Virus record (IMG/VR): IMGVR_UViG_2880372215_000012
Reading direction: 5' to 3' (one strand)
Length of the DNA: 38,479 nucleotides
Source: a virus
Lineage: Duplodnaviria; Heunggongvirae; Uroviricota; Caudoviricetes
Below are positions 35,955 through 37,009 of this stretch, one piece after another; position 1 is the first letter of the stretch, and each line of letters opens with the position of its first letter. Made by a program: the position numbers and the translations under genes. The notes beneath the pieces were generated by a model. The model made no database searches. It saw only the letters and a program-made list of their open reading frames with translations, and was not told where the DNA came from.

Positions 35955-36107
35955 GCGAAATTAACTAGAAGCCAAAGATAAAATCATCGCTGAGCAGGAG
36001 AAAATCGCTAACGGAGAAAAGACAGTAAGTCAGTATATGAAAACCGCATGATATCATCAGATAAAAATCGATCGTAAAGCGAAATATTAATACCAGAATA
36101 AACGAGT

Positions 36108-36129
36108 CGAGGTAAATTATATTACCTCG
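36108..36129. terminator. Perfect 8-bp stem-loop (CGAGGTAA-attata-TTACCTCG) between the convergent TraR-like and membrane-protein genes
   Basis: Read directly; no strong U-tract, so terminator function is uncertain. Confidence 0.3.
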
Positions 36130-36164
36130 ATAAATTAACTAAAACTTGCCCGCTATATACTATC

Positions 36165-36767
36165 TCATTCAGTATCATCACGCGCGGTCTGTGCATATGT
36201 TACTACCGCACCTAATGTATTAATTTTCTTTTCAACATAGATAATATTATCGTACTCATAATTGCCATACGGATAGCAAATGCGAATATTCTCATGTAGA
36301 TCGGGGTCATCCACCTCAGCTCCAGAACAACTTTTTGAACTACCGGAAGTATACCGATACGGTGCAACATAAGACGATGTCTCTCCAGGCAAAAAATAAG
36401 TTAGTGTTGTAAGGGGTATAATCAGAAAAAATCCAGCAAATATGCACATCCCTGCATAAACCTTAAGGTATGCTGACAGACTCTTCCAGCCGCTTTGTTT
36501 TACTATCCCCTTCTTAACCCAAAACAGAGATAACAGAAAAGCTATTCCCATGCTAAACAGAATGTAATAGTGGGATATACTCTGATTAAGAAACGTGACC
36601 CTGTAAATATCTGCCCGCCACCAGAAGAAAAGGAAAATAAAGATCAGGCCTAAAACTGTCATGCAAATCAAATAAGGATACGAATCTTTTTTCATGTTTA
36701 GCGCCCATAAAATTTTTCCTGCCCCGGACAAATTTACCATCCATTTTTTGCGCAGAAAATAGCTCAT
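36165..36767 (-). CDS. Hypothetical membrane protein (reverse-oriented moron between the early-left genes and xis)
   Basis: 200-aa ORF, AT-rich, several hydrophobic segments (..LICMTVLGLIFIFLFFWW.. ..YAGMCIFAGFFLIIPL..); weak RBS; the start could be the internal Met at 36695. No family recognised. Confidence 0.45.
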   Translation of the reverse strand: MSYFLRKKWMVNLSGAGKILWALNMKKDSYPYLICMTVLGLIFIFLFFWWRADIYRVTFLNQSISHYYILFSMGIAFLLSLFWVKKGIVKQSGWKSLSAYLKVYAGMCIFAGFFLIIPLTTLTYFLPGETSSYVAPYRYTSGSSKSCSGAEVDDPDLHENIRICYPYGNYEYDNIIYVEKKINTLGAVVTYAQTARDDTE

Positions 36768-37009
36768 TACTTACTGCACAATAATACACAAAATTGCGTA
36801 AATTTTTTGCATGGATTTTAGCTCTTTCAGCCGACGTTTAAGGGGTAAATAGCATTTCCTAAAAGCAACTGCACCAACCCAACAGAATGAGCTACCGCTT
36901 ACGTTGAGAGCAAAAAAGTGTATAGCAGCAATGAACAGCATCCTCGCACTGACGAGGATTTCTTTTATCTGAACTCGCTACGGCGGGTTTTGTTTTATGG
37001 AGATGATAA

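Follow-up and report, generated by a model that had tools for sequence, protein, structure and literature searches.

T4 Imm and Sp and lactococcal Sie2009 belong to a general kind of small membrane proteins that block the entry of phage genomes. HK97 gp15, made from a moron or other prophage-expressed gene, is of the same kind and faces the periplasm or the cell exterior (PMC3594210), and the best-studied inner-membrane exclusion protein with a size and number of transmembrane (TM) helices similar to those of the protein treated here, P22 SieA, acts in superinfection exclusion by blocking DNA delivery (PMC10883804). In P2-like phages, the interval between gpA and gpQ, the old/tin locus, has been described as an anti-phage hotspot (PMC9122126); among the cargo catalogued there, Table S5B of that study lists as ‘System #4’ a protein of 181 amino acids (aa) with no Pfam match and ‘3 TM’, which with 470 occurrences is the fourth most frequent. 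That protein is 51% identical to the product of the gene that we describe here, a membrane-protein gene lying between a lambda-type Orf73/TraR gene and orf55–xis in a 38,479-nucleotide (nt) stretch of viral DNA (Caudoviricetes; IMG/VR record IMGVR_UViG_2880372215_000012), hereafter the window. We are highly confident of its anatomy: the gene and its control region form a horizontally mobile, single-gene moron.

A single-gene moron in the exo–xis region

An earlier note on the window described a reverse-oriented, AT-rich membrane-protein gene between the early-left genes and xis, antisense to its surroundings, and both the open reading frame (ORF) scan and the G+C content (GC) profile agree with that description. 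An ATG-to-stop ORF of 200 aa occupies 36165–36767 on the minus strand, against the direction of exo, a 93-aa ORF, orf73, orf55, xis and int. GC is 0.36–0.40 across 35900–36950 and 0.45–0.55 on either side. When the window is aligned to lambda, homology extends to 35966 and resumes at 36940, and the segment between these sharp borders, the cassette (Table 1), has a GC of 0.379, unlike both of its flanks (0.467) and the whole window (0.498).

The cassette is patchily distributed, being present in 5 of the 365 matching phage records, and lambda and about 360 others match in the flanks only. Over 35600–37250 the identity of the window to phages 434 and 2B8 is 99.5–99.8%, and to mEp332 it is 98.2%; these three are the only ones among 50,697 phage records to encode the protein. 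In bacteria, the core of the cassette occurs in 997 of 5426 complete Escherichia coli genomes (18%), always on the chromosome, and is 100% identical in many O157:H7 strains, while the protein is abundant in Shigella sonnei records. The reading of the gene as an independently transcribed moron, made in the earlier note, is well supported by the sharp borders, the foreign composition, the cassette’s own terminator at 36107–36130 (judged by sequence), a promoter-like block and the transfer between phage types set out below, its transcription being predicted.

The gene is already annotated in phage 434 and in many E. coli prophages; the family and its fold are uncharacterised. In phage 434 the corresponding product is gp36 (UMO75300.1, ‘putative membrane protein’), which is 99.4% identical and whose gene agrees in position and orientation. 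It differs in being annotated in a 188-aa form and in having a 56-aa ‘membrane protein’ annotated upstream. The announcement of the 434 genome gives annotation at the level of HHpred and no function for the gene (PMC9119081), and our literature search, which covered mEp332, the accession of the RefSeq protein and the record of phage 434, turned up no study of function. Phage 434 also carries an additional 345-base-pair (bp) gene, gp33 (locus L001, 4107–4451), between orf55 and xis; as this gene is missing from the window and from mEp332, the orf55–xis interval is variable as well.

Gene start and coding constraint

The ORF is a genuine gene, and purifying selection on it is strong. Compared with a 78%-identical E. 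coli homologue, amino-acid-changing substitutions (dN) stand at 0.127 and silent substitutions (dS) at 1.22, giving a dN/dS of 0.10; the ratio is higher for the TM part (0.13) than for the C-terminal domain (0.07). Its length is another matter. The earlier note took it to be 200 aa, but homologues below about 80% identity are 169–180 aa long, and their first residue corresponds to Met25 of the 200-aa ORF. In a DNA alignment of the lambdoid and three P2-like copies, the ATG at 36767 is missing from the E. coli P2-like copy and is followed directly by TAG in the Salmonella copies, and we rejected it as the start codon. Among the more distant homologues (≤78% identity) none has a matching N-terminal extension, and the two that begin upstream do so with unrelated sequence. 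Because distant homologues begin at Met25 and the upstream ATG is lost or stopped, a start there, giving 176 aa (36165–36695), is most likely; 36696–36767 is probably not translated. Near-identical E. coli copies have been called at 200 aa, as in the window ORF.

A further minus-strand ORF of 56 aa, just upstream, was considered as a partner gene and rejected. Its ATG lies on the junction between lambda sequence and cassette, within a hairpin, and much of its sequence is unconserved (36831–36939 is 26–35% identical to the Salmonella copies). The P2-like copies do not keep the frame, that of E. coli having an 84-nt insertion which disrupts it, and the ORF matches nothing in Pfam or PHROGs. It is probably spurious, likely an annotation artefact. 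This ORF and the 24-codon extension do resemble what would be expected of chance ORFs in AT-rich junk DNA left by recombination, but extending that explanation to the 176-aa coding sequence leaves it with practically no probability: a dN/dS of 0.10 at a dS of 1.2, 61 cluster representatives sharing one architecture among 1.8 billion proteins and confident AlphaFold2 (AF2) models all speak against it, and we regard it as already refuted by the homologues, their common architecture and dN/dS.

Relatives in P2-like prophages and on chromosomes

Four homologues, from E. coli (78% identity), Salmonella (70% and 59%) and Klebsiella michiganensis (55%), belong to P2-like prophages, where they lie in the interval separating the replication gene gpA from the portal gene, on its gpA side, and read in the direction of the portal gene. 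The 78%-identical one, WP_000711113, is listed as ‘hypothetical’ in Table S5A of PMC9122126, beside the StbA/StbB partition genes. A core of ~730 bp, consisting of the promoter-like block, the coding sequence and the terminator, recurs in settings unrelated to one another: in the lambdoid exo–xis region, in the P2-like gpA–gpQ hotspot and in an integrase-adjacent island.

The lambdoid and P2-like copies also share a junction, because they have an Ea22-like fragment in common. At the left edge of the cassette, the window retains a remnant of an ead/Ea22-like gene that reads GTG-AGC-GAA-ATT-AAC-TAG (M/V-S-E-I-N-stop) at 35951–35968 and continues into an out-of-frame Ea22-like interior; lambda ea22 begins at the position aligned with the start of the remnant, the first five ea22 codons being kept. 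In one E. coli P2-like prophage, a frameshifted ead/Ea22-like fragment (locus L019, 4592–4962) lies convergent beside the homologue and aligns with this remnant. These alignments make it probable that the P2 hotspot received the module from a lambdoid phage, with the Ea22 fragment as a fossil of the transfer. In the window, orf73 lies 4 nt from the start of the remnant and overlaps it.

Other members lie elsewhere. A remote one (~27% identity) follows an integrase in an island with ParM/StbB, ArdC and the CbtA toxin, and in Enterobacter, Klebsiella and Cedecea the member is a lone chromosomal gene in unrelated, non-mobile surroundings. No gene neighbour is common to all the contexts examined. 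Phage-borne copies have a GC 10–16 points below that of their surroundings in E. coli and Salmonella prophages; the Klebsiella prophage copy shows no such drop (0.441 vs 0.449).

Several of these loci hold further genes that we record as observations in their own right. The chromosomal orthologue of Enterobacter (L007, 5085–6510) starts 17 nt after a same-strand gene for a LysR-type regulator, with which it may be co-transcribed. In the K. michiganensis hotspot (L026, 2281–5623), a 790-aa protein with a weak AAA_16 match adjoins a 279-aa protein without a Pfam match, and the pair is a candidate two-gene defence system. In several Salmonella hotspots (for example L003 and L021, 5227–5888), two co-oriented ORFs of 81 and 119 aa without Pfam matches lie just upstream of the family member; other Salmonella hotspots do without them, and in one (L004) a YafO-toxin gene is adjacent instead.

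Promoter, repeats and terminators

The three stem-loops or terminators by which the earlier note saw the gene bracketed are all real, in that each folds much better than shuffled sequence, and the region has 8 sites that resemble terminators, where shuffled sequence yields 1.9 ± 1.5. Only the one at 36107–36130 is part of the cassette; the other two belong to the plus strand of the lambda-homologous backbone. The cassette hairpin lies 35 nt past the stop codon of the membrane-protein gene and has a related counterpart at the equivalent place in the E. coli P2-like copy. Of the backbone hairpins, the one corresponding to 37167–37186 is labelled as a terminator in the phage 434 record, and a tandem pair within 36940–36990 stands at the right edge of the cassette, likewise in lambda-homologous backbone.

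The promoter had been sought at 36768–36900 in the earlier note. A conserved block does reach into that interval, to about 36830, beyond which (36831–36939) the sequence is not conserved, and the best promoter candidate lies outside it, at 36731–36739. This candidate, an extended −10 element found by consensus scan, predicts a transcription start near 36724 and falls inside the supposed start of the 200-aa coding sequence. TGnTAAnTT occurs at the same distance from the start codon in 5 of 9 homologous loci, the chromosomal Cedecea copy included; a standard two-hexamer promoter scan gave nothing convincing. The upstream block as a whole (36696–36830, 135 bp) has 77% identity with the P2-like copy of E. 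coli and 62% with that of Salmonella and is thereby more conserved than third codon positions (58% and 47%, respectively), which indicates that it is under constraint.

Within the block, two to three TTGTGCA-like direct repeats are kept in the lambdoid copy and in the P2-like copies of E. coli and Salmonella and, going by their sequence and conservation, may be the operator for some regulator. Their layout resembles that of binding sites for response regulators of the OmpR/PhoB type. Part of the repeat stretch is labelled ‘CII consensus’ (TTGY-N6-TTGY) in the phage 434 record. We rejected a CII-dependent promoter at TTGT-N6-TTGT: the pattern is at chance level, with at least one match in 42 of 100 shuffles of the window, and no −10 element stands at CII-type spacing. 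Rfam contains no RNA family that matches within 35400–37500.

Transcription would thus run from the gene’s own extended −10 element (36739–36731) to the terminator at 36130–36107. With a promoter and a terminator of its own, the gene would need neither pL nor prophage induction.

A defective prophage as host

The surrounding genes were assigned in the earlier note to an early-left operon read in the pL direction. The genes are there, but pL is not: a NinE-family gene on the minus strand directly adjoins a bet gene that lacks its N-terminus (32126–33009). Window segments 30777–33926 and 35237–38479 match the chromosome of O157:H7 strain TR01 at 100% and 99.9%, respectively, and the RefSeq annotation of the O157:H7 chromosome likewise has NinE beside bet without its N-terminus. 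Because NinE directly abuts the truncated bet, the prophage is, as read from its sequence, defective, with pL, N, the repressor/immunity region and the replication genes missing, and any expression of the cassette must therefore use the cassette’s own signals.

The positions of the cassette, its parts and its neighbours are collected in Table 1. The orf73 product is the homologue of lambda Orf73/TraR, a protein reported to reprogram host transcription (PMC9239242). An IS3-family, IS629-like element of 1310 bp (33927–35236), with transposase ORFs of 108 and 296 aa on the minus strand and a 3-bp target duplication, interrupts a DUF1382/orf63-like gene; it is absent from the otherwise identical O157:H7 TR01.

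Table 1. Features of the cassette and its surroundings, in window coordinates.
Feature	Position	Strand	Remarks
Coding sequence, 176-aa inner-membrane protein	36165–36695	minus	Supported by homologue starts, dN/dS and AF2 model
N-terminal 24 codons of the 200-aa ORF	36696–36767	minus	Holds promoter candidate and 5′ untranslated region
56-aa ORF	36771–36941	minus	Phage 434 gp35, labelled ‘putative membrane protein’
Candidate extended −10, TGgTAAATT	36739–36731	minus	Consensus scan; ~36 nt upstream of start codon
Two to three TTGTGCA-like direct repeats	36774–36802	minus	10–11 bp spacing, roughly a helical turn; at about −50 to −80 from predicted start
Hairpin resembling an intrinsic terminator	36107–36130	minus	9-bp stem, weak T-run; −12.9 kcal/mol, z −3.45
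Cassette	35967–36939		973 bp without lambda homology; in place of lambda ea22 and ea8.5 (1024 bp in lambda)
ead/Ea22-like gene remnant	35951–36075	plus	Convergent on 3′ end of membrane-protein gene
Hairpin	35655–35673	plus	T-run; −10.2 kcal/mol, z −3.8; lambda-homologous backbone upstream of orf73
Two tandem terminator-like hairpins	36940–36959, 36971–36990	plus	T-runs; −20.5 kcal/mol together, z −3.75
Hairpin	37167–37186	plus	−17.6 kcal/mol, z −4.3; backbone, between orf55 and xis/pI
exo	33006–33686		Opposite to membrane-protein gene
orf73	35733–35954		73-aa TraR/DksA-type zinc-finger gene; lambda Orf73/TraR homologue
orf55 (55-aa ORF)	37010–37177		Opposite to membrane-protein gene
xis	37217–37435		Opposite to membrane-protein gene
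int	from 37709 onwards		Opposite to membrane-protein gene

Protein architecture and family

The AF2 model of the 176-aa protein has a mean predicted local distance difference test score of 84.5, and the C-terminal domain modelled alone reaches 88.6. Helices at residues 5–29, 38–61 and 71–101 (176-aa numbering) precede a C-terminal domain built as a five-stranded beta-barrel, alongside which lies a short strand in the first loop (residues 34–36). Hydropathy likewise gives three hydrophobic segments. Lysine and arginine are frequent at the N-terminus and in the second loop, and the C-terminal domain is acidic (6 lysines and arginines vs 12 aspartates and glutamates). On the basis of hydropathy, charge pattern and the AF2 model, we infer an inner-membrane topology with the N-terminus in and the C-terminus out. 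The first loop and the C-terminal barrel would then be periplasmic and almost nothing cytoplasmic, the predicted exposure on that side being ~7 N-terminal residues and a loop of ~15 residues. When 24 diverse members are aligned, two cysteines of the C-terminal domain (residues 123 and 140) are invariant and no other column is, and the modelled barrel is probably disulfide-bonded. A lipoprotein signal was considered and rejected, as there is no lipobox and the early cysteine is not conserved.

Family assignment was held to be impossible in the earlier note, and this stands after profile searches and structure prediction. The one match, PHROG 1416 (E 2e-50, residues 113–200 of the 200-aa ORF, that is the C-terminal 88 residues), is a family with no known function that all the distant members match too. 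Neither Pfam nor NCBIfam matches the window protein, and scans of the distant relatives against Pfam, NCBIfam and PADLOC gave nothing. An exhaustive profile search of 1.84 billion representatives returned no more than 61 proteins, which with few exceptions agree in size and architecture; a 3074-aa repeat protein, in which one 37-residue stretch was matched nine times, was set aside as a compositional artefact of its Cys-containing repeats.

A sequence profile search of the PDB gave nothing below E 0.4, and Foldseek found no match among viral models at E ≤ 0.001. In structure, the C-terminal domain comes closest to five-stranded barrels, namely DUF1093/YxeF (3npp), BcR97A (2k5q) and YhhM/DUF2500 (3q6c), together with OB-fold domains. 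NfeD-like proteins also combine TM helices with a C-terminal OB-fold; neither Pfam nor structural searches matched the protein to them. What emerges is a small orphan family that is frequent single-gene cargo of the accessory loci of temperate phages and ordinary in kind, a small-membrane-protein moron.

Possible functions

Our leading hypothesis, held tentatively, is that the protein serves in phage exclusion or defence at the level of the envelope. It would be made in the lysogen and inserted into the inner membrane with its N-terminus inside, its first loop and its C-terminal barrel, probably disulfide-bonded, facing the periplasm. Acting at the envelope, it would stop the delivery of another phage’s genome across the periplasm and inner membrane, which would amount to superinfection exclusion; one possible route is that it occupies or alters a component of the host inner membrane or periplasm on which the incoming phage depends. 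We place its action at the envelope because the conserved surface is predicted to be periplasmic and no cytoplasmic domain is present, and we put exclusion first because the family is placed repeatedly in an accessory and defence locus of P2-like phages. This argument from a hotspot draws on the P2-like homologues and not on the lambdoid position. For the earlier note’s suggestion that lambdoid phages often carry exclusion or defence genes at this position, we found no evidence; lambda has ea22 and ea8.5 there, both of them modulators of the choice between lysis and lysogeny (PMC7093339).

A number of observations weigh against exclusion. Lambda plates on 434 lysogens, so any exclusion would not be aimed at lambda itself. 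The periplasmic domain is the most conserved part of the protein (dN/dS 0.07) and lacks the diversification often seen in arms-race proteins, and the Shine–Dalgarno sequence of the window copy is weak. Chromosomal homologues match their hosts in GC (0.52 vs 0.54 in Enterobacter, 0.55 vs 0.59 in Klebsiella); because of this match and of the non-mobile contexts, the family probably also has a resident, cellular role, and it may be out of this role that phages recruited their copies. Searches for known systems were negative: in PADLOC-DB v2 the window protein has no match at E ≤ 1 and eight relatives have none at E ≤ 0.1, the annotated exclusion families in PHROGs show no similarity, and homology to P22 SieA was rejected (hhalign probability 0.2%, 9 aligned columns). 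No family member was found among the cloned or tested systems in the accessible part of the PMC9122126 supplement, nor in the accessible part of the supplements to the functional selection study PMC9519451, and the family appears to have been catalogued only. The hotspot itself is ambiguous: its commonest cargo is a partition module (PMC9122126, Table S5B), for which reason position there is not proof of defence, and of the hotspot genes of unknown function that have been tested or predicted, only some are antiviral (PMC9122126; PMC13586616). We rate exclusion no higher because of these points together, namely the absence of an experimental link, the partition cargo, the conserved domain, the chromosomal orthologues and the fact that only some such hotspot genes are antiviral.

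The chromosomal orthologues in non-mobile contexts of Enterobacter and Klebsiella, matched to their hosts in GC, and the strong conservation of the periplasmic domain under purifying selection are also what would be expected if the protein were a lysogenic-conversion or housekeeping envelope factor unrelated to phages, the main alternative, which we consider possible, though unlikely. Its barrel would bind a conserved envelope component or an incoming toxin, the effect being stress tolerance or immunity to a bacteriocin or to a contact-dependent or type VI toxin (‘orphan immunity’). Small inner-membrane proteins with three to four TM helices, encoded opposite to their neighbours, are indeed typical of immunity to pore-forming colicins. 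However, a toxin gene is adjacent in 0 of the 9 contexts examined, the colicin and microcin immunity families are among those in Pfam and NCBIfam that the protein does not match, and members recur at the P2 anti-phage hotspot. It is very unlikely that the protein is instead a membrane effector of abortive infection, which would depolarise or permeabilise the cell upon infection. A suicide function is often discussed for TM proteins of the P2 and P4 hotspots (PMC9122126), and the AT-rich locus is possibly silenced; against this, the gene stands alone, with no partner sensor in any context, and an abortive-infection sensor is disfavoured by the lack of a cytoplasmic domain, since the short N-terminus and the second loop leave little for sensing intracellular phage components. 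The listed O157:H7 genomes carry the gene at 100% identity and so show no sign of its being toxic, which in a clonal lineage is weak evidence.

A role in the phage’s own development, whether in lysis timing, the lysogeny decision or protection from self-lysis, would have the gene take over from ea22 and ea8.5. The gene does sit in the exo–xis region, whose genes modulate the lysis–lysogeny decision (PMC7093339), and the 434 record marks a CII-like TTGY-N6-TTGY site upstream of it. That site is a chance-level match without a −10 element at CII-type spacing, however, and the gene runs antisense to the early operon with its own terminator, is found as well in the P2-like accessory hotspot, an integrative island and the chromosome, and is kept in a defective prophage without immunity or replication region; we consider such a role highly improbable.

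Returning to envelope-level exclusion, a more specific form of it is possible but doubtful. The family would be a new one of periplasm-facing exclusion proteins, built of three TM helices and a disulfide-bonded OB-like barrel, recruited from a resident enterobacterial envelope gene and swapped as a promoter–gene–terminator module between exo–xis and gpA–gpQ, and it would block genome delivery by binding a conserved component of the host inner membrane or periplasm.

Significance

Few uncharacterised prophage cargos are as common in E. coli as this gene, which is present in 18% of complete genomes and also in the classical phage 434, and with a single small gene and a compact native control region its phenotype can be tested cheaply and within days. 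If phage exclusion is confirmed, the result would be a new, structurally distinct exclusion family and a concrete case of cargo moving between lambdoid and P2-like accessory loci, with the Ea22 fragment as a fossil. If the function proves to be another, the case becomes a useful warning against identifying defence genes by hotspot position alone. The Enterobacter orthologue beside the LysR-type gene offers a possible handle on the cellular role of the family.

Comparison with known systems

The likeness to P22 SieA is one of kind only. SieA, too, is an inner-membrane protein expressed from a prophage, of ~160–175 aa with three predicted TM helices, and its gene runs opposite to its neighbours from its own promoter (predicted, in the case of the window gene). 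The differences are several: the SieA motif FxRYPxEAxxFNK is absent from the window protein, the conserved C-terminal part of SieA is predicted to be cytoplasmic whereas the conserved domain here is predicted to be periplasmic, and SieA genes lie between genes 16 and 9 of P22-like phages.

With HK97 gp15 the window protein would share the character of a small, prophage-expressed moron product that faces the periplasm and blocks genome entry, the latter two being proposed for the window protein. It has no detectable homology to gp15, to T4 Imm or Sp or to Sie2009, the only match being PHROG 1416, and to our knowledge an architecture of three TM helices followed by an OB-like barrel has not been described for any of them.

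The closest described relative is ‘System #4’ of the P2 hotspot. BLASTP aligns the two proteins at 51% identity over 168 aa (E 3e-56), and they have in common three TM helices, a C-terminal domain of the form CSGA...ICYP...LGxVV and their occurrence as single-gene cargo. They differ in where they are found, the window copy lying in a lambdoid exo–xis region, between orf73 and orf55–xis, rather than in the gpA–gpQ hotspot. Homology over the whole protein makes the window gene a member of the family represented by ‘System #4’ and PHROG 1416.

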